DNA of 64,000 bases. Origin: a virus. The notes below the pieces were generated by a model. The model worked only from the letters and a program-made list of their open reading frames with translations. It did not search any database and was not told where the DNA came from. Each line of letters begins with the position of its first letter. Positions within the stretch are counted from its first letter, which is position 1. Both the position numbers and the translations under genes were made by a program. The stretch lies in the IMG/VR virus record IMGVR_UViG_3300014208_000031, positions 64,001 to 128,000 of that record, one strand, 5' to 3'. Shown piece by piece: positions 1 to 38,294 of this stretch.

Positions 1-3000
1 GCGAATTCTGGGAACATAATTTTAGGAGTATCAGTAGACGAACAATCTATACGTTCGGCTGAAAATAGAATTCGTGGGTTAATTAAAGGTAATCAAGCAA
101 TTAACCTTAAAGTCAATACAACTGGACTTGGTAGAATTAGTAGTGATGTAGCCCAATTTTCCAAATCGCTAGAAAGTGCGCAGGCAAGAACTTTGGCATT
201 CGTTTCTGCTACTACATTATTATATGGAGTTGGTACTGCCGTAAAATCTATCGCGAGCGCATTTATCGAAACGGAGGCCCGGTTCAAATCAATTCAAATT
301 GTCCTTAATACAACTACACAAAAATTTGACAAATTTAAATCTTCTTTATTTGATATAGCTCGTAACACCGGAAAATCCTTCGAGGAAGCGGCTTCGGCGG
401 CAGAAGAACTGGCGCGCCAAGGTCTAAAAGTAGAAGAAGTTCAAAATAGAGTTAACGCAGCTTTAATATTATCTCGGCAATCAGGATTAGGAACGGCGGA
501 GGCAGTAAAAGCTCTAACTGCTGCAACCAACTCATTTAATAAATCTGCTTTAGATCAAATTGGTATTGTTAATAAGTTAGCAAATGTTGATGCTAACTTT
601 GCTGTATCTTCAAAGGATTTAGTTGAATCACTATCTCGCGCAGGCGCTACCGCACAAGACGCTGGTATTAGTTTTGAGAAATTACTATCTTTAACCGCTT
701 CACTTCAGCAAACAACCGCGCGCGGCGGTGCTGTCATTGGTAACGCTTTAAGATCAATATTTACTAGAATTGAACGGGGTTCTACATTAGATGCACTTCA
801 ACAATTTGGTGTTGCAACAAGAGACTTGCAAGGAAATGTTTTAGCTGTTGACCAAGTATTAAAAAATCTAGCTAATACTTATAAAACATTGAGTCAAGCT
901 GAACAGGCTGCGCTATCCGAAAAAGTCGCAGGCATTCAACAAATTAACCAATTAAAAGCTTTGTTAAGTGATTTAAGTAAGGGTAATTCAATCTATGCAC
1001 AGTCTTTAGCTGTCTCCACCGAAGAAACAAACTCTGCTATCGAAAGAAATAAGGCTTTAAATCAGACTTTACAAACAAACTTAAATGCTATTAAAACAAC
1101 TGCTACTCAATTTAGTTCGGTTTTTGGTAAACTAGTATTTCAACCAACGATTAAAGGCGGCGCGGACTTTGCGCAAAATGTTTTAGGCTCTTTAAACAAT
1201 CAAGATCAAGATAGTAAATCCGCCGGACAGAAACTCGCCGAAGGATTTTTAAGTGGATTTGGAAAAGCGTTAGCTGGCCCCGGCGCGGTTATTGGTATTA
1301 GTGCTATTGTTAATGTAGTAAAACAATTAGGTAAATTTTCTTTTAGTGTTTTAAGTGATTACGCAGCTTTAAATAGTGCTTCTAAATCTCAGGGTTCTAT
1401 TCAAAATGCTATAAATCAAATTTTAGCTACTGGTAATGGTAAATATATTGAAAGATTGGCCCGCGCCCGCTCAATTAAGGAAGAAGAGTTAGCCATTAAA
1501 AGTATAATGTTAGAAATTAACGCTTTGCAAGTTCAGCAAGGAGCGCGAAACTTTAGTGCTGTTCAAAATATTGCTAGAAATAGAGGCGGAGTTACACCTG
1601 AAGGTAGTTTTAAAATACCACGGGCGTCCGGCGGATTTCTTCCTGTGAATCAAGAACAAAATGATATAAATCGGGGTGTCGGCGGGGCATCGCGTTCGGC
1701 CCGGCCTAAAGTTATTCCAAACTTTAATTTCGGCGGAGGCAAAAGAGGAACAGTTGTAGCTAACACTGATGAATATATTGTTCCTAATTTTGGAGGTTCT
1801 GATGGGTCGGCAATATTTAATCAACAAATGGTGGCTAGACATGGATTACCTAGTAATGCTAGAAAAATAAATGCGTCCGGCGGACTTATACCAAATTATA
1901 ATGAATTCAAAGGTTATCCTGAATTTAAAACTCCTAAAATTGGTCGGGGCGGATATTCTGGAATGGTCGGTATTGATTGGAAAAGCGTTTTAAGATATAT
2001 TAGTCCTAATCAATTTTTAGAATCTGCCTTACCATTGGATTCAAGAATTAGAGATGAAAAATCTATTAGTAATATTAGAAATAGAATACAAAAAGGACAA
2101 GAAATTGATCCGGGTTATTTACGTTTAGAAAGAGATAGAAAATCTCGGCGCGGAATCACCGGACACGAAGGGCGACATAGGGCGACAGCCGCGCTTTTGG
2201 AAGGCGTTCAAGACTTTCCAGTAGAATTTGATATTAAAGATTTTGGCCGCGCGCCAAGTTTATATCAGGATGGTAAAATTGAAGAAATATTGGCTCAAAA
2301 ATATTACCCAGAAGCAACAATGACTGGAAATCTTAGTGGATTCGACAACAAAGTAAGACCGGTTCAATTTAATTTTAGACGCGGCGGAAACAGATTATTA
2401 AGTCAATTTTCGCGCGGACTTATTCCCAATTACTTCAACAAATACAACAAACAAGAAGCAAATTATAATGGAGCTTTAATTGATAAAGATTATAAATATA
2501 TTTACGCAGACCAAAACGAAGCAATCAGTAAAAGTAAAAGGTTAGCCGCGCGGGCTAAGGGTTTTGAATTATTGAATCCAGATGACGTTAATTTTCTAGC
2601 TAGAAATGAAGAAATACTAAAAGGCCATAAATTAAAAATAATTGATCCAACTGCTCAACTTACCAAGAATGGAACTGGCAGTTTTCTAAATATTTTATCA
2701 GCTAATTCTTTCAAAGGCGATAAATATAATGAAGCCAGATTATTAAAATTAGGAAAAGTTTCTCCACTGGCGGGGTTTTTGAAATCTAGAGGAATAAGTA
2801 ATCAAAATTTTTTAAAAGCTAAAAAAGCTATTGCACAAAAATTTGGAAATAATTTTTTCATTAAAGCAAAAGAAGGCGGCGGCTCAAATTTTGAAGAAAG
2901 TAATGAAGTATTTTCATCTAATAAAGGTATTTCAAAATTAAAAGATATTGACCCAGAACAATATTATATTCAAGAGGGAATTAAAAATACTACAGGGCTA

Positions 3001-6000
3001 GAATATCGAGTTAATTTAGCTGGCGTGGGTAAAGGTGCTCAAGTATTGGGTCGCGGAGCTTATATTAAAGATGAATATAAAGAAGTCGATCCAAATTTAA
3101 GCGATGCTCCTTCAAGTTTAATTTCAGCGGTTAAATCTGGACGAATTGAAGATTATTTAAAATCTCAAATAGCTATTAGACAAGCGAAACAAGTATTATT
3201 GAATGCCCCGGAAAGAGTCCGGCGCGGCTCAATTACAGGATTTGACGTTTTAGAAACCAACAAAAGTGGATTAGGACTGCTTGGACAGTATTTAGGAATA
3301 GGAAAGGGTGGCGGAGTTGTCGAAGCAAACTTTAGCCAAGACGACCAAGGAAAAGGTCAAGCTGGATATTCTGGATATTTAGACAAATTAGGAGTTTTAA
3401 TTCCGGCGGCTCAAGCTTTGATTAAAAACAATGGAGGATTTGCTGGTGGATTAATTCCCAATTTCAATTTATCTAATAGTCTATTAAATGCCGGAGTAGG
3501 ATTAGATGATAAAGCTAAATTATTAGCACAAATATTGGGCGGATCAAACAGTCCATTAAAAACCGCTATAAACAGAGAGAAAAACGCTGGAATTCCATTA
3601 GATCAGATAAAAGTAGAAAATCATCCAAGTTTAGTGTCCGGCGCGAATCCGGGCGGACTGGCTGTAACTAATAAAATTGATGAACCGGGCGGAATATCTC
3701 AGGGAATATCTCGCGCGATTAAAGAAGGTAGAAATCCTAAAACTTACGGAGCAAGTAAGGGATTGATTCCGAATTATGCTTTACCAAAACCCCCAACTTT
3801 ACTTTCTGGCGCTCCCGCCGCACTACAAGAAGAATTTTTACAAGAATTGTTAAGAGAATTTGCTAAAAAAGCCGCTCTAGAAAATCAAAAAGGATTTTTT
3901 AGTGGAAGAAAATCTGGTAAAATATTAAAAGATTTTGAACAAGAATTAAAGGCGTCGCCGGGATTTGCTAGATTGGGTCAAGCTTCGCAAGATAGATTTG
4001 ATCTAGAAACGTCTAATGTTCAAGCGGCACAGGCAGACAGACGTAGAGGAAAAGTTCAAGGAGCGGCTTTTACAGCGGCTATCGGAGCGCCCATTTTAAC
4101 TAATGCTTTAACATCTTTATCTCCAGCAAATGATAAAACATCCAGACAAATTAACGCGGTTGGAGAATCCGCCGGAACTGGATTAAGTTTGGCTGCAACA
4201 TTCGGATTTAGTCCTTTTGGCATTGCCGTCGGCGCGGCTACTACAGCTTTAGGTTCATTAAGAGGAATAGCTGATGCTAGTAGAAAAAGTTTAGAAGATT
4301 TAACTAAAGAAGTTGATGATACGCGCGGGACATTTGAAGGAAATAAAAATGCCTCGGCTGGTGTGTTTCAAGGCCGTGAACAACTAAAAGATTTAATAAA
4401 TTCTGGAGCTTCAAGTAAAGAAATAGATTTAGTTTCAAGAAACATTCAAGATTTAATTACTTCGATTGATGATCCAAGTTTAAGAAACAAAGTGGTCGGA
4501 GCTAAAACTAACGATGAGCAACTTAATATTTTAGCAGAAATTTCGTCAGCCCAAGCCAAAGCTGTTGCAGAAAAAGGTATAGGAGTGGGTCTAGAATCTA
4601 TAATTGGTAAAAATCGTGATATTTTTAAAGACAAATTTGGCGATACACAAAATATTCTGCTTAATAAACAAGATAGAACAGATGTAACTAGCTTAATTAG
4701 AAGTGCTTTACCCTTAGAGTCAGATGCAACTAAACGCACCGGACAAATTAAGGGTTTAGAAGATTTAAATACCAAGGGAGATTTTGGTTTAGAAAGTTTA
4801 CAACGTGTGCTAGGCACACTAAATATTAGTTCCGACGCCTTAAAACAATTTAATCAATTAGCATTAATCGAACAAGAACTTATTGTTAAAAACGTTGTTC
4901 AACGAAACTTGTCCGCCGATGCGCTCAGAAAAGAAAATGAGAATCTAAAAGTTTATACTCAGTCGGTGGTAAATCTAGGAAGACTACTAGATAAATTACA
5001 AACTTCAACAAATTTTAAATTTGATTTAGGTAATATTAGAGATTCTGGAACTAGAAATCGCGCGTTATCCGGGGCAAATCAAGCTTTAGGGACTTTAGGT
5101 AATTTTATTACTCCTGAATCTCAAAATAGATTTGAAAATAGAAATAAAGAGTTTGAGATTAAAAATGAATTAATAACTAGCACTAACGACATTAGTAAAA
5201 GTTTTATTAACAGTTTTGATTCTTTACCAAGTTTAGTTGAAGAAGCTTTTAAGAAATTCACTACCGGAAACGGAGAAGGCGAAGGTAAAAATATTTCCGG
5301 AAAATCTGAATCATTAAAAAATACTTTACAACAATTAAGAGCAAATGTTTTAGCTGCCGGCGGCAATCCAGTTGACGCAGCAAATTCTGGCGTTGAAAAA
5401 ATAAACGAACAAATTAAATTACTTGGAGGACAAGACGGTAAATTAAATAAACCCTTAATTGACGCTCTAATCAAATTTAGAGACGAGGGGTTGAGCATTC
5501 CTGTGGAGTTAGCCCGCGCTCAAAGTGAGGAAGCAAGACTTTTACAAGCTAATACCAACAAACTTAACGAACTAAACCTTTCTATAACAAAACAATTAAG
5601 TTTCCTCGGCGGACGAAGCTTTAAGGATTTACCGTCCGCGGACTTCAGTGATATTAAAGGTGGTTTAAGTCAAGGAAAAACAATTAGAGATTCAATTAAC
5701 GGACCTTTTAGTAAAAGAATATTTAAATCGCGCGGATCAAGTTTCCAAGATTTCTTCCAAGGTCAACAAATTGATGAAGAAGCGGAAAACTCTCGTCGTG
5801 GAAATGTATTTTCTAAATTGGCGGGCGGAAAACTTCAAGCTTTTAAAGAAGGATTTTTAGATGGAAATCCCGAACAAATTAACCAAGCAAGATTTGAAGT
5901 TGCGAAAGCTTACGAAGCCAGACAAACAGAAACTTTAGATAAATTAATTAAAGATGCTCAAAATTCTGGAGATTTTGAATTCGCAGATCAATTAAGAAGT

Positions 6001-7971
6001 AAAAAAACAGGGGTGTCTGGAAATGCAGCACTTTTAGCGGCGAAAGACATTCCGTTTGATCAAAAAAACTTAAATACTCCCTTCGGCCCGGAAGGCGCGT
6101 TTAAAGAGTTAAGTGCTAGTTTAACCGGATTAAAAACTAGTTTTGACGCTGGGATAACAGGTAATTTTAATTTATTATTTGACAATTCTAAAACGGCGGC
6201 AAGCGCATTACTTGATTTAGCTAAAGCAACTAAAGAAGTAAGTGATATTAATGCTGTTGCTGCAAAAAATATAGAAATGGTAGCATTAAATGAGCAAAAG
6301 AAAGAGTTAGAGGGTAAAAAACTTGGCTTATTACAATCTCAAACAGCAAAAGACGAAGAAAATAAATCATTTTTTCAACAACTAGATAAAACTGCGCCGT
6401 CAAAAAGTTTGTTTGGTAGAAGATTAGATGAAAAAGCTGTTGGGGCAGAATTAGGAATTGATCCACAACAAATTCGTAGGTTTAACGATTTTGGACAACA
6501 ATATGCTAATCAAAAAGATTCTAAATTCACAGATTATTCTAGGAACGTTGGCGGATTAGGATTTAATGAACAACAATTAGGCTCTTTATATGATAAACAA
6601 TTTCAACCGGATCAAAATCATTTTAAAAATCCTGAATTAGAGAAATTACAAAGAGATGCTGTTGACAGAGATAAGAGAAAAACTTTAAATTATGTTTATT
6701 CAACCAATCAGCAATTAGGTAATACTCCAAATAATCAATCAGAAATTAAAAAACTACAAGATCAAATAGATGAATTACAAAGACAATTAGATGAAAAAAA
6801 TAAACCTGAAAATAAAGCCGCCGGATATATTCCTAAATATGCGGGCGGATTAATCAGTTCATTAAAAGCCGAACAAAAAGCTATTAGTTCTGGAGTCGGT
6901 GGTGCGCGAGCGGGCGATAAACCCTATCTAACGCAAATTAAAGGATTAGGCCCGGCGGTTGTTAACACTGGAGAATCTATAATAAGAAACTTTGCAGGTG
7001 GCGGAGATGCAGTATTAAACAGAAAGATGAAAAAATCTTTAGGTATAAATAATTACGCCGACGGAAATATTGATTTATCTAAATTATCTGAAAAAGATAT
7101 AAGATATGGAGATAATATCGTAGCAAATGATGAATTGAGTAGATTAGCCGCTGCCTATAAAAAAGATGGAATTGAAGGGGTCAAAAGATGTATTGCTATT
7201 TTAAATAGTGGTAATGAAAATTTAGTTGCTAATAAAGCTGGAGGGTACTTTGGAGATGAAGAAATTGATAAATTTTATCAAGAATCTTTAAGAATTAAAG
7301 GTGTTAATCGTTTCGATAAAAATCGTTTTCAAAATTATACTAACCGGGAAAGAAAAAATAATTTCGGCGGAAGCAAAATATTTGGAGACGATTTTAATAA
7401 CCAGTCTAATATATTTAATTCTCAATTTGCTGGTAGCTCACAATACAAAGGAATAGATATTCAAGAAAGAATTAGAAACCAAGGCAGCGCATTTAGCCCA
7501 GTCTCAATTCAATCGTCCGGTGGATTACGTTCAGGTAGTCTCCAAGGACCGCAAAGATACGGCTCGCGCGAACTTAATTCTGATGAAATCGAAAGAGATG
7601 CTAGAAGAAATAGCGGAAGAAATCAAAATAGATATGATAGAAATGTTGGCCGCGCGACGAATGAAGTTGATTCTCTTAAAAAGGAATTAGAAGATTTAAG
7701 AAATAAAGTTGGTCAACAAAATAATAATACTACAAATAATTCACAAAATTCTGTTAATAATAGTGAGAAAAATGGACCCATAGATGTTTCCCATACTATT
7801 AAAATCGAAATTAACGGAAATATAACTGCTAAAACTGACGCGCAGACCGCCGTGATAAACGAAGAACTTGCAAATTTTAAAACAAGGGTTGAGGCTCGTT
7901 TGGCTTCCCTTGAGGCCGCAACTCCGGGGGCAAAACCCGTGCCTCCCATTGCAAATCGCGGGGCTAGTTAA
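1..7971 (+). CDS. Tail tape measure protein (TP901 family) with internal cargo domains; 5' end lies outside the window
   Basis: Frame 1 is open from base 1 (ANSGNIILGVSVDEQ...). The N-terminus has TP901/PhageMin_Tail-like sequence (ELARQGL, LANVDANFAVSSKDL, GAVIGNALRSIFTRI). A hydrophobic segment lies at about 4050-4260 and there are long helical regions. It precedes the tail-tip genes. Confidence 0.9.
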   Translation, partial: ANSGNIILGVSVDEQSIRSAENRIRGLIKGNQAINLKVNTTGLGRISSDVAQFSKSLESAQARTLAFVSATTLLYGVGTAVKSIASAFIETEARFKSIQIVLNTTTQKFDKFKSSLFDIARNTGKSFEEAASAAEELARQGLKVEEVQNRVNAALILSRQSGLGTAEAVKALTAATNSFNKSALDQIGIVNKLANVDANFAVSSKDLVESLSRAGATAQDAGISFEKLLSLTASLQQTTARGGAVIGNALRSIFTRIERGSTLDALQQFGVATRDLQGNVLAVDQVLKNLANTYKTLSQAEQAALSEKVAGIQQINQLKALLSDLSKGNSIYAQSLAVSTEETNSAIERNKALNQTLQTNLNAIKTTATQFSSVFGKLVFQPTIKGGADFAQNVLGSLNNQDQDSKSAGQKLAEGFLSGFGKALAGPGAVIGISAIVNVVKQLGKFSFSVLSDYAALNSASKSQGSIQNAINQILATGNGKYIERLARARSIKEEELAIKSIMLEINALQVQQGARNFSAVQNIARNRGGVTPEGSFKIPRASGGFLPVNQEQNDINRGVGGASRSARPKVIPNFNFGGGKRGTVVANTDEYIVPNFGGSDGSAIFNQQMVARHGLPSNARKINASGGLIPNYNEFKGYPEFKTPKIGRGGYSGMVGIDWKSVLRYISPNQFLESALPLDSRIRDEKSISNIRNRIQKGQEIDPGYLRLERDRKSRRGITGHEGRHRATAALLEGVQDFPVEFDIKDFGRAPSLYQDGKIEEILAQKYYPEATMTGNLSGFDNKVRPVQFNFRRGGNRLLSQFSRGLIPNYFNKYNKQEANYNGALIDKDYKYIYADQNEAISKSKRLAARAKGFELLNPDDVNFLARNEEILKGHKLKIIDPTAQLTKNGTGSFLNILSANSFKGDKYNEARLLKLGKVSPLAGFLKSRGISNQNFLKAKKAIAQKFGNNFFIKAKEGGGSNFEESNEVFSSNKGISKLKDIDPEQYYIQEGIKNTTGLEYRVNLAGVGKGAQVLGRGAYIKDEYKEVDPNLSDAPSSLISAVKSGRIEDYLKSQIAIRQAKQVLLNAPERVRRGSITGFDVLETNKSGLGLLGQYLGIGKGGGVVEANFSQDDQGKGQAGYSGYLDKLGVLIPAAQALIKNNGGFAGGLIPNFNLSNSLLNAGVGLDDKAKLLAQILGGSNSPLKTAINREKNAGIPLDQIKVENHPSLVSGANPGGLAVTNKIDEPGGISQGISRAIKEGRNPKTYGASKGLIPNYALPKPPTLLSGAPAALQEEFLQELLREFAKKAALENQKGFFSGRKSGKILKDFEQELKASPGFARLGQASQDRFDLETSNVQAAQADRRRGKVQGAAFTAAIGAPILTNALTSLSPANDKTSRQINAVGESAGTGLSLAATFGFSPFGIAVGAATTALGSLRGIADASRKSLEDLTKEVDDTRGTFEGNKNASAGVFQGREQLKDLINSGASSKEIDLVSRNIQDLITSIDDPSLRNKVVGAKTNDEQLNILAEISSAQAKAVAEKGIGVGLESIIGKNRDIFKDKFGDTQNILLNKQDRTDVTSLIRSALPLESDATKRTGQIKGLEDLNTKGDFGLESLQRVLGTLNISSDALKQFNQLALIEQELIVKNVVQRNLSADALRKENENLKVYTQSVVNLGRLLDKLQTSTNFKFDLGNIRDSGTRNRALSGANQALGTLGNFITPESQNRFENRNKEFEIKNELITSTNDISKSFINSFDSLPSLVEEAFKKFTTGNGEGEGKNISGKSESLKNTLQQLRANVLAAGGNPVDAANSGVEKINEQIKLLGGQDGKLNKPLIDALIKFRDEGLSIPVELARAQSEEARLLQANTNKLNELNLSITKQLSFLGGRSFKDLPSADFSDIKGGLSQGKTIRDSINGPFSKRIFKSRGSSFQDFFQGQQIDEEAENSRRGNVFSKLAGGKLQAFKEGFLDGNPEQINQARFEVAKAYEARQTETLDKLIKDAQNSGDFEFADQLRSKKTGVSGNAALLAAKDIPFDQKNLNTPFGPEGAFKELSASLTGLKTSFDAGITGNFNLLFDNSKTAASALLDLAKATKEVSDINAVAAKNIEMVALNEQKKELEGKKLGLLQSQTAKDEENKSFFQQLDKTAPSKSLFGRRLDEKAVGAELGIDPQQIRRFNDFGQQYANQKDSKFTDYSRNVGGLGFNEQQLGSLYDKQFQPDQNHFKNPELEKLQRDAVDRDKRKTLNYVYSTNQQLGNTPNNQSEIKKLQDQIDELQRQLDEKNKPENKAAGYIPKYAGGLISSLKAEQKAISSGVGGARAGDKPYLTQIKGLGPAVVNTGESIIRNFAGGGDAVLNRKMKKSLGINNYADGNIDLSKLSEKDIRYGDNIVANDELSRLAAAYKKDGIEGVKRCIAILNSGNENLVANKAGGYFGDEEIDKFYQESLRIKGVNRFDKNRFQNYTNRERKNNFGGSKIFGDDFNNQSNIFNSQFAGSSQYKGIDIQERIRNQGSAFSPVSIQSSGGLRSGSLQGPQRYGSRELNSDEIERDARRNSGRNQNRYDRNVGRATNEVDSLKKELEDLRNKVGQQNNNTTNNSQNSVNNSEKNGPIDVSHTIKIEINGNITAKTDAQTAVINEELANFKTRVEARLASLEAATPGAKPVPPIANRGAS

Positions 7972-7973
7972 AT

Positions 7974-7981
7974 AGTGTAAA
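7974..7981 (+). promoter_or_regulatory. AGTGTAAA motif (putative late promoter), followed by AGGAATAAG
   Basis: The same motif recurs upstream of genes at 10762, 12857, 38711 and 55468 (+), and at 10719, 41424, 45755 and 60282 (-). Confidence 0.6.
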
Positions 7982-8014
7982 ATAAAATGTTAATTAAAGG
8001 AATAAGAAAATTTT

Positions 8015-9661
8015 ATGTTAAGCTTTAGCGGGGCTAGTCTACTTTCACAAAATCGTCAAAATCAATTTTTTGGCGACAGTTTTAGATATGCGATCAAAGA
8101 TTCATACACAATAAACGGATATTTATTGGACTTAAAAAACGTTTCTGGGATTTCTGGGATATTAACTCAGTTGAGCGGTATGAGTTTAGAAACGCAAGAT
8201 AACCAAATTATTTTAATTAATGGAACGTACTTTGGCCTTGGCCGGATAAACAGCCTAAATTTTGCAGAAGGGGTAGATGTCAAATTAAAAAATTATACTT
8301 GTAATTTTGATATAATCAACTCTGGAAATACGTTTAATTTGCCGACAGAGCCACTTTATTCTGGCTTAGTATTAAATAATTCTAGTTATAGCGCACATTT
8401 TATTGATGAATTTAGTGAAAATTTTTCGTCTGAAGTCTCGGAAGACGGGTCATATACGGAAAATCAAGTAATTAAACTACGCTTCTATTCGGGTATTGAC
8501 GGGACTACAAAAAATCCAATAACAATGGCGCAAAATTTTGCTTCCAATCTTATCTTAACAAATGCTCCAGTGGGTTTTATAGATAGTTTTTATTCAGGCT
8601 GGCGCAGACAGCCGGGCCGCCGACAAAGACAAGAAAGTATTAATCTTATTACTAACGAAGTTAGTATTACCGAAACATTTAAAATATTAAAAGGGATTAG
8701 TGGAACTTATTCTATTAATTATATTAATAGTTTAAATGTAAATGAAAATTCAATAACCACAGTATCAGAAAAAGGACGAGTTCAAGGATTAATACCGGAT
8801 AGTAGAAATCAATATTTCCCGGCGGCTTATTCCGGCGAACAATATGAAGTAAATAATTTTTCTTATTTGCGCTGTAATAATCTATTTAATTCTTATCAAT
8901 TAGGTAGTAGTTATCCATTAAATTCTCGACGGCTAACTTATGGTCAAAGTTTGAATAAATTTAGTGATACTGTAGATTATGAGGTTTCTTACTCAAATGA
9001 TCCACGAACTAACAATTCTTACTCTTGGGAATATACTCAAAATATTGAAAGAGAAAATGGTGGATGTACTTATAGTATCTCCGAAGACGGTCAAGTAATT
9101 GGACTAAGTACCAATTGTGATCCAGCCGCGCGATATTTAAACGCTTTAACTGCTTACAGCGGAGTAAAAACGGGAGTTTATTTAAGAACTTATAATTTTT
9201 ATACCGGATTTAGTACTTTTGCTAATCCAATTAAATTAATTAATCAAAGTGAAACAAAAAGTAAATTTAATGGAGATATAAAATATCAATTTAACTATTC
9301 CGATAACCTTTTATACTCGACTAGCGGAGTCAAAAAAATGAGTATTAGTTTAACGGACGATCATGCTACGCCCGGTAAAAATCTTTTTGACATACCATCG
9401 GTCAAGCAAATAGCACAGCCAAATAATATACCTAATTTAGCAAAAAGATCATTAGAATTGGAAATTATAGGAAACCGTGGAACCAATCTTACGGGATACT
9501 TAAATTTAGCAAAAAATACTATAAATTTATATCCGCCTACCGGAACAGACGGTTATATTAGTAATTTAAATTACAGTTTCGCGCCTCTCACTAACACGTT
9601 TAATATATCAACGGAATGGGCTTACGAAGAGTCAATTAACTTAAACCAATTTATTTTATAA
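8015..9661 (+). CDS. Putative tail/baseplate structural protein (paralog of 10798..12858)
   Basis: Directly follows the TMP. Beta-rich, S/T/N/Y-rich, with segmental similarity to the 686-aa protein. Confidence 0.6.
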   Translation: MLSFSGASLLSQNRQNQFFGDSFRYAIKDSYTINGYLLDLKNVSGISGILTQLSGMSLETQDNQIILINGTYFGLGRINSLNFAEGVDVKLKNYTCNFDIINSGNTFNLPTEPLYSGLVLNNSSYSAHFIDEFSENFSSEVSEDGSYTENQVIKLRFYSGIDGTTKNPITMAQNFASNLILTNAPVGFIDSFYSGWRRQPGRRQRQESINLITNEVSITETFKILKGISGTYSINYINSLNVNENSITTVSEKGRVQGLIPDSRNQYFPAAYSGEQYEVNNFSYLRCNNLFNSYQLGSSYPLNSRRLTYGQSLNKFSDTVDYEVSYSNDPRTNNSYSWEYTQNIERENGGCTYSISEDGQVIGLSTNCDPAARYLNALTAYSGVKTGVYLRTYNFYTGFSTFANPIKLINQSETKSKFNGDIKYQFNYSDNLLYSTSGVKKMSISLTDDHATPGKNLFDIPSVKQIAQPNNIPNLAKRSLELEIIGNRGTNLTGYLNLAKNTINLYPPTGTDGYISNLNYSFAPLTNTFNISTEWAYEESINLNQFIL

Positions 9662-10537
9662 AACTGGATTTACGTTTATTTCTTTCACCCATTCAAATTC
9701 CGCTGGATTCGGCCAAGTTTGAATTAAATCGAGAAGTTGTTGTTTAGATTTGATTTTAGGAATATTCTGTGCGCGTTGCCCATCTGGTAGAATATCATTC
9801 TTAACAGAATTTTTATTATTGGAAAGTGGTCTTAAATTTTTATAGTAAGTAACCATAAATTGGGGTTCTAAAAATGCAAAATCAAATAAAGTTACTGGAA
9901 TTATATGGTCAAAAACCCATAATTTATCTTTACCATAATTTTCCCAAGTCATATTGTTGTTGAATTGATTTTCGATATAACTTCTACATTCTTTTAATCC
10001 TATTCCTAATAGGTTTTTTGAGTTTTTGTATAATTTTTTATTTTTTCTAATAACAGCAGAAATATGTCTAACGCATTTCATAATTTTAAATTCGGGTTCA
10101 GAAGATTTTATTCTTAGCCTTTTTCGTTCTCTTTCTCTAACTTTTTGTTTATTTTTCTTTTTATATGTTTTAATATCTTCGTTAACACATTTTTTACATT
10201 TAGCTCTATATCTTTTTGTATCTCTAATAATTCTTTTTATATAAAATTCATCAACTAATTTTATTACATTACAACATATGCAAATTTTTTCTGTAGGTTC
10301 AATATAAAATTTTTGGCCTTTAATTGTTGGTAGTGGCAAATTATTTTTAATATATTTATTTTCATAGTATTGTTTACTGCTACAATCTTTACATTTACTT
10401 TTTAGTATATTGTTTCCAGATAGAGAAAAACTGGAAAGCTCTAAAACTTTTTCGCATGTTTTACAAAATTTGTATCCATCTAGACAACAAAATTCATGTT
10501 TATTATAAATAAATTTTTGATGGTTATTCTGGACCAT
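9656..10537 (-). CDS. HNH/EndoVII-like homing endonuclease with N-terminal CxxC zinc-finger repeats
   Basis: CKTC...CKDC and CICC...CKKC pairs. C-terminal YIENQF...MTWENYG...WVFDHIIP...NLRPL...N.VKND. Inverted relative to its neighbours. Confidence 0.8.
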   Translation of the reverse strand: MVQNNHQKFIYNKHEFCCLDGYKFCKTCEKVLELSSFSLSGNNILKSKCKDCSSKQYYENKYIKNNLPLPTIKGQKFYIEPTEKICICCNVIKLVDEFYIKRIIRDTKRYRAKCKKCVNEDIKTYKKKNKQKVRERERKRLRIKSSEPEFKIMKCVRHISAVIRKNKKLYKNSKNLLGIGLKECRSYIENQFNNNMTWENYGKDKLWVFDHIIPVTLFDFAFLEPQFMVTYYKNLRPLSNNKNSVKNDILPDGQRAQNIPKIKSKQQLLDLIQTWPNPAEFEWVKEINVNPVL

Positions 10538-10797: not shown

Positions 10798-12858
10798 ATG
10801 ATTGAAATTTATTATGGAGGGAGTGGAATATTGGCGTATCCGACTGGATACCCCAAACCTTTATTTAGTGAAACTGAAAACGCTGTAAGGTACGGGGGAA
10901 AGTGGTGTACTACGACCACAATTACTCTAAACGGCCAATTGTCCGGTTGTACATACGATGCAATCCAAACTGCTAAATCCAGACTAGAGAATATTTATAG
11001 CAAAGATTTTCAAAGCTTATTAATAATTCAAGACGGGCGGACTTATTATGATAGTTATTATAATATCATTAGAGAAATTGATTTTCAACAATCTAGATAT
11101 ATTGGATTGCTTGATTATAGTGTTAGTTTAGAGAGTTATCCGCGCGAACTTTTTAGTGGCTATTTCGGCGTAATAGAGCCGGTTAATGAATGGAATTTTT
11201 CTGAAGATAACAATCAGTTATTAATTGTTAACCATAGAGTATCAGCTAAGGGAATTCAGACATCTAATAGCTATAGTAACTCTTTTGATAATGCAAAAAA
11301 TTATGTATTATCGTTAACGGGTTCTAGCAGTTTTATTTCCCCATATTTTACAAATCACTGCACCGGAGTTTCTCTATGTTTGGATACTTTTAGCGAAAAC
11401 ATAGATAGATTTAATTGCACGTTCGGAATCGAAGAAAAATATTATTTAGACCCATTAGCAGAAGGATCAATTTCTCCAATAATTGAATCTATATCTGGCG
11501 AATATGCATCTGTAAGTATAAGTATTTCACCAGTAGTTGATGGAGATACGTTTCTTGCTTCTTATACGGATAATGGAATAACTACCACAATAAATATAGA
11601 ATTTGATAATAATTCTAGTTTGAATAATCCATCATATACATTACTAGATATTGGTATTGGAGGCGATCCGCTTGATTATGGAGAGAGTCTAGCTAACACT
11701 ATAAACCTAATTCTAACTAATGCTGTTTGTAGTTTTAATTCTTCTAATAGCTTACTAACTCTTATTTCAAATAACCAAAGTAGTTTAATTTCCGTTAATT
11801 TAAATGGAACTAGTGACACTGGAGTAACTGAAGTAATAGGAACTCCAGCTAGTATTGTTTATAATAATAGGCATGGATATATAAGATATACCACAGATTA
11901 TAGTTGTGATGCATTGCGAGGCGCGGCGACTTTATCAATCAATGGTGAAGTTAAATCTTGTAAAAATGTTGATTTAGATACTTTACGGTCTAAGTATCAG
12001 TCTTTTGATGTTTATTCGGCGGCTGTCCGCGCGTATTATGAATCGTGTGGTCGATTAGATTTAAATAGAAATTTTTTATTCAGCGGGATTACCGAGGATC
12101 AATTTAGCAAAAAAATCAATTTTAATGTTAGTTTTGATAATGATTTTAACCCGCGCACATTTTTAGAGTATGAAACTTCAATAAAATTGGACGACCAAGA
12201 TATAACCACGGTTGGCGTAAAAGGAACGATTAAGTCTCGCGGGGACTTAAAAAATAAATATTCTTTAGTAGAAAATTACTACAACACTCAACTTAATTTA
12301 TATTATTTAGCTTATCAAAGCTATAATGAATTTTATAATAACGCGCCGGTCTACCCACTGAGAAATCAGCAGTTAAACTATTCAATAAGTAAAAATCAAT
12401 TTGTTGGAGAAATCAGTGTTTCAACAGAGTACGATAATAAAGATTTAATACCGCCAGAATTTCAAAGTTTAGATTATAATATTTCTGTTACCCCCGCTAT
12501 TCGTCAAATTAGAGCATTGCCACTTGTTAAGTTGGATTCGCCTAGCTTATGTTCTGGGAACTGGTATTGTAGCGATCTAGGATTTAATAATAGGGCTCAA
12601 ATACAAATCGCGGGCCGTGCGGTTGGAACATGCACTGGCAACGCAACGACCACTCTAACTGGAATTCGTAATTTAGGAAATTACTGGTTAACTAATTTAT
12701 ATAATAATGATAGAACATTTCTAGATAAAAATTCTATAGTCCAAACTAACGAAGGAAAAGGGAATTCATTTTCGTTTAATTTCGGATGGTCATTTGACGC
12801 AACGCAGTCTGCAAATACCAGTCCTTGGAATTGGATTGAAACATTAAGTCTAAAATAG
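10798..12858 (+). CDS. Putative tail/baseplate structural protein with an internal insertion
   Basis: In the tail module, preceded by AGTGTAAA and AGGAATAAG. Resembles 8015..9661. Confidence 0.6.
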   Translation: MIEIYYGGSGILAYPTGYPKPLFSETENAVRYGGKWCTTTTITLNGQLSGCTYDAIQTAKSRLENIYSKDFQSLLIIQDGRTYYDSYYNIIREIDFQQSRYIGLLDYSVSLESYPRELFSGYFGVIEPVNEWNFSEDNNQLLIVNHRVSAKGIQTSNSYSNSFDNAKNYVLSLTGSSSFISPYFTNHCTGVSLCLDTFSENIDRFNCTFGIEEKYYLDPLAEGSISPIIESISGEYASVSISISPVVDGDTFLASYTDNGITTTINIEFDNNSSLNNPSYTLLDIGIGGDPLDYGESLANTINLILTNAVCSFNSSNSLLTLISNNQSSLISVNLNGTSDTGVTEVIGTPASIVYNNRHGYIRYTTDYSCDALRGAATLSINGEVKSCKNVDLDTLRSKYQSFDVYSAAVRAYYESCGRLDLNRNFLFSGITEDQFSKKINFNVSFDNDFNPRTFLEYETSIKLDDQDITTVGVKGTIKSRGDLKNKYSLVENYYNTQLNLYYLAYQSYNEFYNNAPVYPLRNQQLNYSISKNQFVGEISVSTEYDNKDLIPPEFQSLDYNISVTPAIRQIRALPLVKLDSPSLCSGNWYCSDLGFNNRAQIQIAGRAVGTCTGNATTTLTGIRNLGNYWLTNLYNNDRTFLDKNSIVQTNEGKGNSFSFNFGWSFDATQSANTSPWNWIETLSLK

Positions 12859-12895
12859 TGTAAAGATAATCCAGGAATAAGAAAATTTTAATTGA

Positions 12896-14638
12896 ATGAA
12901 CCCCACAGGAGTCCAATATTTTACACATAGCGATAAAACGAATACGAGCGGCCAGCTACAAGTATTTTATGCATTTACGGGCGGTTCTGGAACTCATATT
13001 ATCCCCAGTTTACCTTTTGGTAAGTCCGCGTATTCAGGATTTATAGATAATACTGGATCGTTTTATGATGTTTCTGGAAGCGGATTTTTCGGAGGTCAAA
13101 CTAGTATTCGAGTAAATAATGCTTCCGGGCTTTCTAGTCAAACTTGGAGTATGATTATTGATTATAAAATTTCAGGCGGACAGAATAACGTGCTTTTCTC
13201 CAACTATTCGTCTGGAACTATAAATAGCGGATGGATAATAGGTGTTAACGATGCGAATTCAGTATACCTGGAATATTATTCTAATCAAGGTCCGCAAATT
13301 TTAATATCTAACACTACATACGGAACACAAAATACAATAGTTATTACTAAGAATAATTCCGCAATAAATTTAGATTATTTAGATTATAATACAAAATCTT
13401 TAATTTCAGAAAATTTTTCAATTGATCCTGTATATTTTTTACCTAGTGACAATTGGTATATTGGAGCGAGCACGGGAACCCCCGGATATTATTCTGGACA
13501 AAAATATAAGGGGTTTATGGATTACTGGCTTTATTTTGCACCAGCACTTTTACCAAGTCAAAAATTAGGTGTTTTATCAGGATTATATTGTGATATAACT
13601 AATCCAATTCAAACAATTAGTTCTTATACTACTAGTTTGGTTACGGGGCAAACTACTGGATTAGTGAGTATATTTACTGGAACTACTGGGGAAGCAAACG
13701 AATTCTACAATTATATTACGGGTGCATGTAATTCAATTCATGCTGTATACTCGGGTATTAATTTAACCGGTTTCGTGTATGATATTGGAACGGTTCCTCT
13801 AACTCAAACAATTACTACATACATAACTGGAATTACAGGCGGCGGACCGATTGAGAATAGCGGATATTCTATTAGTCATGGATTTAATGCGGTTAGCTAT
13901 CTAAAAGAAATAAATGCGACGGACATCTCAGAGCTATATTATTTTCCTCGATCTACTAATAAAATAAATATCAATAACGAATTATCTTTCGACTTTACAT
14001 TAAATAAATTTATTTTACCATCTCAATATAATATTAATCAAATTAATTTTTATATTAATTCAGTGGGACAATTTGGCAGTGGTTATAACGTAACTGGAGA
14101 TTTTTATAATTTAACGATAGATAAAAGCGGTATGTATTTTGTTTCTGGAAATTATTTATCTGGAGATTATCAAGGTAATGATACTAATATTATTGATATA
14201 ATCAGCGGAAATAGAGTTTTTAACACGGGATTTTGGGTATTAAACAATAACACTGGTATATCTGGGATGGGATTACCAAACTCGTTAGTATTTTTGGGTG
14301 GACAAAAACTTAAAAGTGGACTAGACTATAGAATATCTGGAACGGATTTAATTTTAAATAATTCTTATTGGTATGATACTATAGATAGTGGAAGATATTG
14401 GAGTGCGCCGATTGATACTGAAAGTAGTTTTACTTCTGGAGTTTGGAATAACTTAGATTTAAATTCTGGTTATTTTGCCCGTGGAACCACACAGTTATGG
14501 ATGAATGGCGTGAGAGAGAACTTAAACGATGATTATATTGAAATTAGTCATTTATCTTTACTCAATAACTCTGGACACTATTTAGATAATTTAAATAATA
14601 TTTTTATTAGTGATTTAGGATTTTTAGAAAGTATATAA
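12896..14638 (+). CDS. Virion protein with an N-terminal LamG/concanavalin A-like domain
   Basis: WSMIIDY...VLFSNY...GWIIGVND...WYIG...YKGFMDYW...L is a LamG-like pattern. SG/TG-rich. Confidence 0.6.
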   Translation: MNPTGVQYFTHSDKTNTSGQLQVFYAFTGGSGTHIIPSLPFGKSAYSGFIDNTGSFYDVSGSGFFGGQTSIRVNNASGLSSQTWSMIIDYKISGGQNNVLFSNYSSGTINSGWIIGVNDANSVYLEYYSNQGPQILISNTTYGTQNTIVITKNNSAINLDYLDYNTKSLISENFSIDPVYFLPSDNWYIGASTGTPGYYSGQKYKGFMDYWLYFAPALLPSQKLGVLSGLYCDITNPIQTISSYTTSLVTGQTTGLVSIFTGTTGEANEFYNYITGACNSIHAVYSGINLTGFVYDIGTVPLTQTITTYITGITGGGPIENSGYSISHGFNAVSYLKEINATDISELYYFPRSTNKININNELSFDFTLNKFILPSQYNINQINFYINSVGQFGSGYNVTGDFYNLTIDKSGMYFVSGNYLSGDYQGNDTNIIDIISGNRVFNTGFWVLNNNTGISGMGLPNSLVFLGGQKLKSGLDYRISGTDLILNNSYWYDTIDSGRYWSAPIDTESSFTSGVWNNLDLNSGYFARGTTQLWMNGVRENLNDDYIEISHLSLLNNSGHYLDNLNNIFISDLGFLESI

Positions 14639-34844: not shown

Positions 34845-37800
34845 TTAAACTAAGTTTAGTTCAGTTTGGGGATTTTCTACTGTAGTTTCGATTGTTTTTG
34901 GTAGTAAATCTTCTGAGTCCGCCGAGGGTAAATCTTTTAACTCCGATAAACGCCAATACACTTTTTCGCTTTGGACTGATAAATCAGATACGAAAATCGT
35001 ATCACCTTTCTTTTGTCCGCGAAATGCTATTATTTCCCCCTCTTCTGGTAATTTCTTTTCTTCATCTATATGATTCATCAATGATTTTCCACAAAATAAT
35101 AATCTACACGAAGAAGTATTGTCAGAAATATTCATTTTATAATACATATTTCCTTTTTTCGACTTACTTTTGTAAATTTCTTTGATTGTAGCCACGCAGG
35201 TTGCAGTTTCACCTTCTAACATTGATTGGAATTCTAAAATGTTAATCAAATCATTTCTTTCTTCTCCAAATACACTTTTTAATGTATGAGAATAACTGTA
35301 TCCAAGAAGTTTTTCCTCTAGAATTAAACTGGTTAGGTTTTCATGTTGTGAATTCATTTTGAAAATCTTGGAATAGCCAATGCTTTTCTTTCTTAGCGTT
35401 CCCAATCTTGTCTTGCGCGCAACTTTTTTTCCCAACGAATCTGTCCAATTATCTAAATTTTTAAGAGAATCAAGTAAATTAAAATTATTATTTTTACCAT
35501 TATTGATTAAGTATAGTTTCTCTTTGTCTGTTAAAAGATTCCAAATTTGCGCTTCCAATACCGTCTTGGTTCTAGTTTCAGTAATAAATTCATCAATACA
35601 ACCCGATTGGATCAACGCGCTAACAATTCCGATTCCTAATTTACTTTGACGAAAACATTGGAATAATTCATATTTTGTCGAATAATCAGATTTGAAGGAT
35701 TTTAACTTTTCTAAAGCAGATGAAGCAATTCCTTTGATTGAACATAATCCAAATCTTATATCGTTTCCCACAATTTCAAAGTCTAAATTACCATGTTTAA
35801 TTGATGGCGGCAATAGTTTAATATTGTATAATTGAAGTTCTTTCTGAATTGAAGCAATATATTCTTGAGAATCTGCTTCATTTTTAGACATTCTTAATAA
35901 AGCAAGAAAAAATTCTTTTGGATGATTTTCTTTAACCCATATTGTCATTGCTGTAAGCATCCCATAAAGGGCGCTGTGTGAAAAATTAAATTGGTACCCG
36001 GCGGAATCCTCAACAATTTTCCAAACTACATCGGCAATTTCCAATGGATGATTATTATCTTTACATGCTTTATAAATCTTGTCTTTAGATTCTTTAATTT
36101 TTAATTCATCTTTTTTACCAATGGCCCGGCGGACAAGTTCACAATTCTCTAAATCCATGCCTAATTTGTTAAGCATGAGTAAAACTTGCTCTTGAAACAA
36201 ACAAACGCCGCCAGTAGGCTTTAAAACATCATCAATAACATGATATGTTTCTTTATAGATTCCTTTATGTATATAATCACAGTATTTTTCTAAATAATCC
36301 ATCGCCCCCGGCCTAGATATTGCAAGACAACACGTTAATTCAAAGAAATTTTTACATTTAATTTTTTTAGCACAACTACCCTGAGCAAATGTTTCTAATT
36401 GAAAAATACCAAAAGTGCGCTCGAAATTTTGAAGTGAATCGTAAATTGATTGATCGTGAATATTTATACTAAATGGATCAATTCCAATGAGTTTAGCAGC
36501 TTCAAAAAGGGTTGAGCTTGTCTTGAGCCCCAAAATGTCAAATTTTACTGATAGGTCTTGTGCTTCATACATTGAAAAAGATGTAATTATTTCTTTAGTA
36601 GAAGATAATTCTAAAGGCATTACATCATCCATATTTTCAAATGTGATTGCTATCGCGCTGGCATGAACTGACTTACATTTTATTAACTGGTAAAGCGTTC
36701 TAGAAATCGAATATATTTCAGGATAACTATCACAAAACTTTTTAAACTCTGGAACTTCTTTATAGACTTTATCTATTGGTTCTGGTTTTCCGTAAATTGT
36801 TGGGATTAGCTCTGCAATTGGATGAACGTCTGATTCTTCTAGTTCATATAAAACTTTTCCAACCTCTTTGATTAAATTCTTAGATTGAAGTTCTTGCAAA
36901 GAAACTATTTTAGCTGTTTTACCATTAAATTTATCCCGAATGTAAGATTGAATTTCTCCCTTGCGATAGAAGCAAAAATCCTGATCCACATCACAAATTA
37001 AAGAACCTAGCAAATAAGTAATTCCGTCAACTTCTTTCTTTTTAGCTCTTACTTTACTAATAAAACGCTGAAAAAACAATTGCATCGGTAATTCTTTTCC
37101 AATTGGGTCAAGATGAATGCAACCAATCATATAAAACACCAAACTTCCACCAACTGATCCGCGTCCTGGCCCGCGCGGAATCTCGTTTTTTACAGCATAC
37201 TGATAAATATCCCAAATCGCCAAGACATAATCTACGAAACCTAAATCTTTAAATGTTTCTAACTCATATTTTAAACGTTCTGTATATTCTTTATATCGTT
37301 CTTTATCTATTTTACCATTTTCTAATTTTTCTTTAAAACCATTATAACAAACTTGTCTCAAAAAGTCATAATTTGAACAGTTTTTTCGCGCGCCAACAGC
37401 TTTCTTTTCTTCTTCACTAATTTTAATTTCAGGTAGTCTAACCCATTCATATAAAGGAAAATCATAAGTAGAAAATTTAGACTCAAAAATATTATCTTCT
37501 TTATTTTCTTGTTTTATCTCGTTCCATTTTAAAAAATTAAAGGAGTCGTCTGAGTTGTGTTCTAGATTTGGCTTGTTAATATTCGTTCTTTTAGAGATAC
37601 AACAAAGTGTTTGATAGGATTTGTATAAACTTGGAGAATAATAGTAAATTGAATGAGTTTTAACTATTGGATAATTATACTCTTTACAATATTTGTATAA
37701 CGCATCTTTAATTAGAAATGAAAATGGTAAATCATGGGTTTCGGATTCATCAAAAAATATGGGATTTGTAAAATTTAAATCTGGTAAACAGGTGTTAAAT

Positions 37801-38294
37801 TTAAGTAAATTATTTGCTATAAACGAATCAAAGAAATTAACTGTTAATGTTAAATTATTCGACCAGAGAGATTTTAGAGATTTTGAGTCAATCCGCGCAA
37901 AGTAATAAAATCCTTCGCAATGCGCGCGACTACTTATCTTGATTAAATCTTTATATCCAGCACTAGAATTACACCAAACAGTTATAGCCGATTCGGTTTT
38001 TAAAGAGCTTTCAGATTTATCATCAATATCATTGCACAGAATTAGTTTTAATCCAAATCTAAATGGAATATTATAGTATTTTGAAGTTTTATAACACTTG
38101 AAAAAGCCTGACATTGATCGGTCAGAAATATAGATATATGGCAACTTATTTTTATAAGCCGCGTGGAATACAGAAATAGGGGATTCTAAATCAATTTCAT
38201 TATCTTTTTCACATTCTTTTTCTGGTTGCTCGGCTGTAAAAAGCGCGGACCCGATAGAATAAGTTGTAGAAAAAAGAGGTATTACATTATACAT
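34845..38294 (-). CDS. dnaE: DNA polymerase III alpha subunit (family C)
   Basis: PHP-like N-terminus; RLKYEL, GPGRGSVGGSLV, DVDQDF, SVHASA, KFDILGL, GIFQLE, FQEQV, YQFNFSHS, IRFGL..IKGI; C-terminal OB fold. Confidence 0.95.
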   Translation of the reverse strand: MYNVIPLFSTTYSIGSALFTAEQPEKECEKDNEIDLESPISVFHAAYKNKLPYIYISDRSMSGFFKCYKTSKYYNIPFRFGLKLILCNDIDDKSESSLKTESAITVWCNSSAGYKDLIKISSRAHCEGFYYFARIDSKSLKSLWSNNLTLTVNFFDSFIANNLLKFNTCLPDLNFTNPIFFDESETHDLPFSFLIKDALYKYCKEYNYPIVKTHSIYYYSPSLYKSYQTLCCISKRTNINKPNLEHNSDDSFNFLKWNEIKQENKEDNIFESKFSTYDFPLYEWVRLPEIKISEEEKKAVGARKNCSNYDFLRQVCYNGFKEKLENGKIDKERYKEYTERLKYELETFKDLGFVDYVLAIWDIYQYAVKNEIPRGPGRGSVGGSLVFYMIGCIHLDPIGKELPMQLFFQRFISKVRAKKKEVDGITYLLGSLICDVDQDFCFYRKGEIQSYIRDKFNGKTAKIVSLQELQSKNLIKEVGKVLYELEESDVHPIAELIPTIYGKPEPIDKVYKEVPEFKKFCDSYPEIYSISRTLYQLIKCKSVHASAIAITFENMDDVMPLELSSTKEIITSFSMYEAQDLSVKFDILGLKTSSTLFEAAKLIGIDPFSINIHDQSIYDSLQNFERTFGIFQLETFAQGSCAKKIKCKNFFELTCCLAISRPGAMDYLEKYCDYIHKGIYKETYHVIDDVLKPTGGVCLFQEQVLLMLNKLGMDLENCELVRRAIGKKDELKIKESKDKIYKACKDNNHPLEIADVVWKIVEDSAGYQFNFSHSALYGMLTAMTIWVKENHPKEFFLALLRMSKNEADSQEYIASIQKELQLYNIKLLPPSIKHGNLDFEIVGNDIRFGLCSIKGIASSALEKLKSFKSDYSTKYELFQCFRQSKLGIGIVSALIQSGCIDEFITETRTKTVLEAQIWNLLTDKEKLYLINNGKNNNFNLLDSLKNLDNWTDSLGKKVARKTRLGTLRKKSIGYSKIFKMNSQHENLTSLILEEKLLGYSYSHTLKSVFGEERNDLINILEFQSMLEGETATCVATIKEIYKSKSKKGNMYYKMNISDNTSSCRLLFCGKSLMNHIDEEKKLPEEGEIIAFRGQKKGDTIFVSDLSVQSEKVYWRLSELKDLPSADSEDLLPKTIETTVENPQTELNLV

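Follow-up and report, generated by a model that had tools for sequence, protein, structure and literature searches.

Among the closest described systems to the one reported here are the polyvalent proteins of phages and conjugative elements, whose several enzyme domains are predicted to enter the host together with the DNA (Iyer, Burroughs, Anand, de Souza and Aravind, 2017; PMC5512222). The DdrB-like ParB clade of these proteins is distinguished by an Asp or Asn with which strand 2 ends and by an additional helix that bears a conserved Tyr (PMC5512222). Here, we analyze a giant tape measure protein (TMP) that is encoded at the start of a 64,000-nt stretch of viral DNA, bases 64001-128000 of the 167,664-bp IMG/VR virus record IMGVR_UViG_3300014208_000031, which is rated 100% complete; we refer to the whole stretch as the window. 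We find that this TMP very probably carries its enzyme-type domains in a modular cassette that is fenced by a short conserved peptide.

To our knowledge, TMPs are regarded as rulers and channel formers, and their only known cargo is wall-degrading. Muralytic motifs are embedded in the TMPs of mycobacteriophage TM4 (Mt3) and phage T5 (pb2), and SLT or lysozyme domains also occur in TMPs. Embedded muralytic motifs have also been found in the TMPs of enterococcal phages (PMC10194240). When proteins were labelled from ManZ in the inner membrane during injection by phage lambda, the TMP gpH was the one phage protein with a robust signal (PMC13190303). In a study of mosaicism in phage proteins, no TMP could be confirmed as a genuine, recent mosaic (PMC10684548). 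Our search of the literature found no description of a TMP with a peptide-fenced polyvalent, ATP-grasp/ParB or effector-domain architecture.

Short peptides are used as boundary marks or cleavage sites in other protein systems. Polymorphic toxins have demarcation motifs, such as VENN of CdiA and DPxGL of Rhs, and the Rhs motif is also a self-cleavage site. Viral coat proteins that cleave themselves with the help of an Asn need a folded catalytic environment to do so. Polymorphic toxins with demarcation motifs were described by Zhang et al. (2012; PMC3482391), and the coat protein of Nudaurelia capensis omega virus is cut between Asn570 and Phe571 (PMC8144610).

RESULTS

A conserved peptide recurs in a giant tape measure protein

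The TMP is encoded on the plus strand by an open reading frame (ORF; 1-7971, 2657 aa) that is open in frame 1 from the first base of the window, with its ATG start codon located 3 nt upstream. The identity of the protein, proposed originally from the sequence itself, was borne out by a PhageMin_Tail domain (PF10145; plus strand, 358-933, aa 120-311; 104.8 bits compared to a cut-off of 33.2, E = 7.4e-30) and by matches to 12 PHROG TMP families (best E = 1.5e-53). The original prediction described this TMP as a set of cargo domains between six copies of a short motif, and all six are present in frame 1 of the plus strand at the positions given there. Four of them are the boundary peptides ASGGLIPNY (1873-1899), FSRGLIPNY (2407-2433), FAGGLIPNF (3439-3465) and ASKGLIPNY (3751-3777), numbered 1 to 4 below, and the other two are the degenerate copies ASGGFLP (nt 1624) and AAGYIPKY (nt 6817). 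We found two further motif-like elements beyond that list, VIPNF (nt 1711) and IVPNF (nt 1777). Across the whole 167.6-kb genome, in any frame and considering ORFs of at least 80 aa, the pentapeptide [LIVFYM][LIV]PN[FY] has six copies, all of them in the TMP. A general prohead-protease site was set aside as an identity for the peptide because it occurs in no other ORF of the genome.

A word-indexed search with TMP residues 535-1300 recovered 208 giant TMPs (E ≤ 0.001) with lengths of 1900-4600 aa, all of which are metagenomic. We fetched 120 of these proteins, and the motif, segment and architecture counts given below refer to them. Together, they contain 487 copies of the strict pattern G[LIVFYM][LIV]P[NK][FY], compared to a mean of 0.55 copies in shuffled sequences. 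The copies follow the decapeptide consensus A-[AS]-x-G-[FYL]-[IV]-P-N-[FY]-A, where G and P are conserved in 100% and N in 99% of cases, and each TMP has from 0 to 12 of them at variable spacing.

Modules are exchanged exactly at the peptide

The segments between the peptides vary both in identity and in number among homologous TMPs, as swappable cargo had been expected to do. The 366 inter-peptide segments, one to ten per TMP, fall into 71 similarity clusters (23 with at least two members) and are arranged in 72 distinct module architectures, for example 9-2-3-11-0, 7-2-8-0 and 10-1-0. The arrangement shows slot preferences: some segment families always come first, and a 67-residue family almost always comes last.

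The N-terminal part of the TMP and two junction modules, described below, are conserved, and the cassette and the long C-terminal half are variable. When 124 homologs are mapped onto the window TMP, about 122 of them cover residues 51-640 and 111 cover residues 1201-1250, compared to 4-13 for residues 651-1150 and 4-17 for residues beyond 1300. The earlier expectation that the flanks of the cassette stay constant was accordingly upheld for both junction modules and for the first 640 residues of the TMP, but it failed for the C-terminal flank.

We compared the positions at which similarity between family members begins and ends. Within the cassette, 64-74% of the internal ends of BLAST high-scoring segment pairs lie within -12 to +15 residues of a peptide, compared to 17% at random; their starts peak just before the conserved G and their ends peak just after the aromatic residue. 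Pairs of TMPs that are 97-99.4% identical over residues 1 to ~636 differ in their first module. In one such comparison (P0098 versus P0099), the DNA sequences are 98.5% identical over nt 1-1910, the identity stops at the last codon of GF[IV]PNF, an unrelated stretch of 540-670 nt follows, and identity returns, at 96.4%, 3 codons ahead of the next peptide's G. These two genes differ by the clean replacement of one cassette that has a peptide on either side. The exchangeable units begin and end exactly at the peptide, and related phages gain, lose and replace modules between peptides.

The copies of the peptide in the window gene differ in their synonymous codons. Therefore, the peptide is kept by selection on the protein, and not as a DNA recombination site. 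The repeats had been proposed to be recombination joints, and this description holds for them as module boundaries, as seen from the breakpoints and the clean swaps, but not as a site at the DNA level.

In four large TMPs (P0107, P0110, P0103 and P0007; 4400-4600 and 3490 aa), we observed up to 12 peptides, some of which lie a long way downstream of the others (aa 2527-2764 or 3657, for instance). This arrangement suggests that some TMPs may have a second cassette slot in their C-terminal half.

Paralogous junction modules open and close the cassette

The cassette is opened by junction module A (plus strand, 1624-1899, aa 542-633) and closed by junction module Z (plus strand, 3466-3750, aa 1156-1250, or aa 1156-1259 in its longer delimitation), and the peptide is found on both sides of each. 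Module A begins with ASGGFLP, includes VIPNF and IVPNF internally and ends with boundary peptide 1; its IPNF-like elements, four per module, are an integral and conserved part of it. Module Z is the nearly universal last module of the cassette. An hhalign comparison shows that A and Z are homologous (probability 88%, E = 2.9e-6). Module A of the window is 54-78% identical to the first-junction copies of the other aligned TMPs and 33-38% identical to C-terminal copies, and its module Z is 42-71% identical to the Z copies of other family members.

A third, degenerate copy of the junction module lies near the C-terminus (plus strand, 6796-7116, aa 2266-2372) and contains the AAGYIPKY element. This C-terminal copy fences no cargo; its peptide has decayed (N to K, P to R), and the core of the module has been kept. 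The junction modules keep invariant Asn, Glu and Asp residues and have no such Ser, Cys or His. A profile search with module A against PDB sequences returned no match, and aligning the same profile with lambda gpH showed no similarity (hhalign probability 0.1%, E = 0.47). In Pfam and NCBIfam, the junction and cargo segments of the window have no significant match. A predicted complex of three module A copies scored 0.00 with the fold of the partner uncertain, and we give it no weight either way.

The two cargo modules have ParB/sulfiredoxin and ATP-grasp folds

The intervals between the peptides were originally described as globular and as including a ParB/sulfiredoxin-like and an ATP-grasp domain. 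We predicted the structures of cargo module 1 (plus strand, 1900-2406, aa 634-802) and cargo module 2 (plus strand, 2434-3438, aa 812-1146) from separate single-module alignments (A4 and A5). Both segments fold with confident cores that match the two expected superfamilies, and both guesses hold at the level of the fold.

The AlphaFold model of cargo module 1 has a confident core (aa 659-749) with a predicted local distance difference test (pLDDT) score of 82-95. All of its top Foldseek/VIA matches belong to the ParB/sulfiredoxin superfamily, with middling Z values: 5.9-6.4 for sulfiredoxins (92-99 residues aligned at 4.1-4.6 Å) and 3.4-5 for ParB, Noc, KorB, PadC, Osa and SbnI. The module contains the sequence GHEGRHR (nt 2161-2181); among 56 sequences, the G, R, H and R of the motif GHEGRHR(A) are invariant, and its H and E are at least 90% conserved. 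In its residue pattern, this motif conforms to a putative Arg-bearing nucleotide-binding motif of the G-x-x-R-x-x-A type. The window's module has no Pfam match at E ≤ 10, and so none to ParB_N (PF02195), which is weakly matched by 4 of 54 homologs of the module (best E = 8.7e-4).

A phmmer search with residues 632-1150 found about 55 homologs of cargo module 1, some of them stand-alone and some fused to other domains, namely ART-PolyVal, GNAT, NUDIX, SprT-like and cell wall hydrolase domains. The stand-alone homologs are without the peptide, which is therefore a part of the TMP scaffold; in the four homologs that have TMP-type flanks, it is retained intact or in a degenerate form.

The model of cargo module 2 has a predicted template modelling (pTM) score of 0.76 and 89 PDB matches at E ≤ 1e-3. 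All of the 40-odd matches listed are ATP-grasp enzymes, with probabilities of 0.99-1.0, and among those listed are biotin carboxylase, PurK, Ddl, LysX/ArgX and TTLL6. Across 11 sequences, K955, E1001-x-R1003, D1082 and E1108-x-N1110 are at least 90% conserved and Q991 is also kept (these positions follow the numbering of P0001, which comprises TMP residues 2-2657). The conserved residues occur in the usual order of the ATP-grasp nucleotide and metal ligands and, by this pattern, are their putative equivalents. Homologs of this module are found almost only in related TMPs, and it has no Pfam or NCBIfam match at E ≤ 10.

Cargo in other family members

The two most common cargo families (clusters 1 and 2) are homologous to each other (hhalign probability 95.7%). 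From the pattern G-IFE...DF...[ED]AK, and on pattern only, they may be PD-(D/E)xK-like. Cluster 3 has weak P-loop matches only, and the guess that it is a kinase was not supported. Profile searches of clusters 1, 2 and 3 against PDB sequences gave no match. A Pfam scan of 20 modules chosen to represent other family members gave no match, and all of the 24 module sequences scanned stay below the gathering score.

Enzymes of the classical wall-degrading type are present in the family, as a few members carry PF01464 (SLT) or PF00959 (lysozyme) domains. A zincin-like HELGHH (HExxH) motif occurs in cluster 21 (P0008:2245-2439 and P0009), in each case between two copies of module Z. The window TMP itself has no embedded zincin-like processing peptidase or other polyvalent signature domain in a Pfam scan.

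Sequence context of the cassette and of the gene

The cassette is flanked by hydrophobic, membrane-type stretches located ~90 residues before and ~90 residues after it, a feature of TMPs of the TP901/PF10145 type. The first is Gly-rich (plus strand, 1243-1353, aa 415-451) with Kyte-Doolittle values of up to 1.59 over 19 residues. The second comprises Gly/Ala-rich stretches (plus strand, 4054-4272, aa 1352-1424) that are a candidate membrane-inserting part of the TMP. Farther downstream, the C-terminal part of the TMP (7200-7700, aa ~2400-2560) contains an extended region of low complexity in which N, Q, S, R and G are abundant. It is followed by a short coiled-coil-like tail, and this C-terminal stretch is common to only 4-5 homologs.

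The structural region directly upstream of the TMP gene (52.9-63.7 kb of the genome) contains at least four homing-endonuclease-type genes. In the coordinates of the upstream stretch (L002), they are located at 2883-3812 (+), 7086-8294 (+), 8659-9537 (+) and 12732-13718 (-). One is a GIY-YIG endonuclease, two are paralogues of the phrog_4645 'endonuclease' family, and one is an HNH endonuclease on the opposite strand, immediately before the start of the TMP gene. Downstream of the TMP gene, a 293-aa ORF on the minus strand (9656-10537) interrupts the otherwise plus-strand tail block between ORFs of 548 and 686 aa. Both gene orientation and GC skew flip at ~20.6 kb of the window, with genes mostly on the plus strand before this point and nearly all on the minus strand after it (20600-64000). 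Among the minus-strand ORFs is one of 1149 aa at 34845-38294.

An identical TMP (P0002) is also present on a 224,142-bp contig. Either the genome is in truth larger than the record of the window, or the gene may be common to two related phages. A single-protein scan of 185,579 species genomes matched only short contigs binned to a Flavobacterium sp. metagenome-assembled genome (MAG) and a Herpetosiphonaceae MAG, and the host cannot be named because just two MAG contigs match. The GC content of the window is ~32%, which would fit a Flavobacterium-type host. The conserved region of the TMP had no tblastn match in 50,697 GenBank phage records, and therefore no cultured relative is available.

DISCUSSION

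We propose that this TMP is a cargo carrier. In this reading, a conserved N-terminal ruler (aa 1-540) precedes a slot with module A at its entry and the diverged paralogue Z at its end. The slot holds independently folding enzyme-type modules, here a ParB/sulfiredoxin-fold module of an NTP-binding or nuclease type and a ligase-type ATP-grasp domain, with the decapeptide at every module boundary. A single constant partner could read the peptide, so that any module would be pluggable into the scaffold. Because a TMP leaves the tail before the DNA and reaches the inner membrane, the modules may be carried along and enter the next host as ready-made enzymes. The modular, peptide-fenced cassette is the part of this proposal in which we are highly confident. 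For the delivery of functional enzymes to the host, we see an even chance, and the proposal taken as a whole, cassette and delivery together, is just as evenly balanced. The swappable-cargo part of the original polyprotein reading accordingly stands, with exchangeable modules and both folds, and its claims of delivery and cleavage are graded separately.

We infer delivery from the biology of TMPs such as lambda gpH, from the polyvalent affinities of the ParB family and from the rapid turnover of modules. Alternatively, the modules may not be delivered effectors at all: they may pad out the length of the ruler, be decayed remnants, or work as enzymes in the producing cell, for instance in tail assembly. 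Embedded motifs do add to tail length in the TM4 TMP, and the representative modules scanned all fall short of a Pfam gathering score. However, catalytic-type residues have been kept in both window modules (GHEGRHR in the ParB-like module; K, E-x-R, D and E-x-N in the ATP-grasp module), modules turn over rapidly between phages that are otherwise near-identical, as conflict genes do and spacers do not, and the other fusion partners of the ParB family are effector domains of polyvalent proteins. We consider this alternative improbable. Still less credible is a peptide without any protein function, left as a recombination scar or as microhomology for in-frame exchange of DNA cassettes. The homology breakpoints do fall exactly at the peptide, but 99-100% of the 487 copies have the same G, P and N while synonymous codons differ within one gene; in addition, a joint of 18-30 nt gives little homology, and long conserved flanks can supply the homology in the P0098/P0099 swap.

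The role of the peptide would most likely be that of a release or processing mark, with a cut at or beside the invariant P-N-[FY] after ejection, a pattern known from viral polyproteins and from the demarcation motifs of Rhs and CdiA. Actual cleavage is a real possibility, though on balance we would not expect it. A competing explanation, which we also take seriously but consider doubtful, is that the peptide is not a cut site and is instead a structural or docking strand that binds a constant partner, such as the junction modules, a tail assembly chaperone or the tube lumen. While the tail is assembled, each module would be held in place or insulated in this way; the modules would stay tethered on an intact TMP and, if they act at all, would do so in the attached state. 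Such a constant partner equally explains the shared peptide on every module and its restriction to the TMP, and a docking strand is consistent with the four IPNF-like elements integral to module A, with the short strands that DSSP assigns, at low confidence, to the peptide positions of both models and with the lack of a protease common to the family. However, the peptide is limited to the cassette boundaries and is not spread along the ruler, and its decay in the cargo-free C-terminal junction copy, where the core is kept, ties it to cargo handling rather than to general assembly. For these two reasons, its restriction to the edges of cargo and its decay in the absence of cargo, a release mark is slightly favoured over docking.

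Several observations weigh against delivery or against release. Folded modules of 19-38 kDa in three copies are too large for a normal tail-tube lumen, and therefore the modules would have to be transported unfolded or be located elsewhere. The neighbouring ORFs have no structural match in PHROG or Pfam, such as to a tube, chaperone or baseplate gene, with homing endonucleases the only genes recognised, and so give no indication of the tail type. As neither cargo module of the window reaches a Pfam or NCBIfam model, their activity is deduced from fold and conserved residues only. The two internal IPNF-like elements of the conserved module A fit a structural strand as well as a cleavage site. 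The HExxH module, the sole protease-like module seen, is present in 2 of 120 TMPs, and the family has no protease in common. Finally, the peptide segments have low pLDDT scores of 35-56 in both monomer models (ParB-like and ATP-grasp).

The cargo-carrier proposal has a stronger form, which we judge unlikely. The giant TMPs could be true injected polyproteins that are cut at each P-N-[FY] after ejection, releasing an enzyme cocktail into the cytoplasm. The cutting could possibly be self-cleavage, aided by the conserved junction modules. The released cocktail would be specific to each phage, comprising nucleases, NTP-dependent enzymes and ligases, and the whole would be a polymorphic effector-injection system within the tail ruler that evolves by cassette exchange, as polymorphic toxins do.

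This TMP family provides clean, recent and nucleotide-resolved swaps of enzyme modules inside a ruler protein at a dedicated peptide, and its modules are of the same types as in injected polyvalent proteins. Should the modules be delivered, takeover or anti-defence enzymes made in advance could enter the cell through the tail lumen as well as from the capsid, and the cassette would be a large uncatalogued reservoir of such enzymes with 71 segment families. The conserved peptide also makes it easy to locate the limits of modules in metagenomes and allows one-residue tests of processing.

Comparison with known systems

The resemblance of the boundary peptide to known cleavage sites is partial. 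The self-cleaving coat proteins share an invariant Asn followed by an aromatic residue, as in P-N-[FY], but this is a likeness of two residues and only a lead. Like viral polyproteins, TMPs of the window type have one conserved short motif at every domain boundary. The maturation of lambda gpH to gpH* would be similar in that a TMP is processed near a conserved module; it differs in that module A has no similarity to gpH.

Compared to TMPs with muralytic motifs, the architecture is the same in that the ruler contains a globular enzyme and brings it to the cell envelope at infection, and the few family members with PF01464 or PF00959 domains belong to this common ground. The differences are that the folds here are of a cytoplasmic type, that there are one to ten segments rather than a single motif, and that the segments are exchangeable and fenced by a peptide. 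With polymorphic toxins, the family has in common a short conserved peptide that joins a constant delivery scaffold to variable enzymatic domains, and cassettes that are exchanged at this peptide. Those toxins have one terminal toxin domain and an adjacent immunity gene, whereas the TMPs have several internal modules that are fenced on both sides, and their cargo is in a virion protein with no immunity gene evident.

The polyvalent proteins are a further close comparison. In both systems, unrelated effector-type domains are combined in one polypeptide, here a ParB/sulfiredoxin-fold and an ATP-grasp module in a TMP, and the ParB/sulfiredoxin type is recurrent. The ART-PolyVal, GNAT, NUDIX and SprT-like fusion partners of the ParB-module homologs make up a repertoire of domains that is known from polyvalent proteins. 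Those proteins typically include a processing metallopeptidase, which is absent from the window TMP. Unlike in the polyvalent proteins, whose description never mentions the word 'tape' (PMC5512222), the carrier here is the TMP itself, and its cargo occupies a defined slot between paralogous junction modules, with a conserved decapeptide at every boundary.

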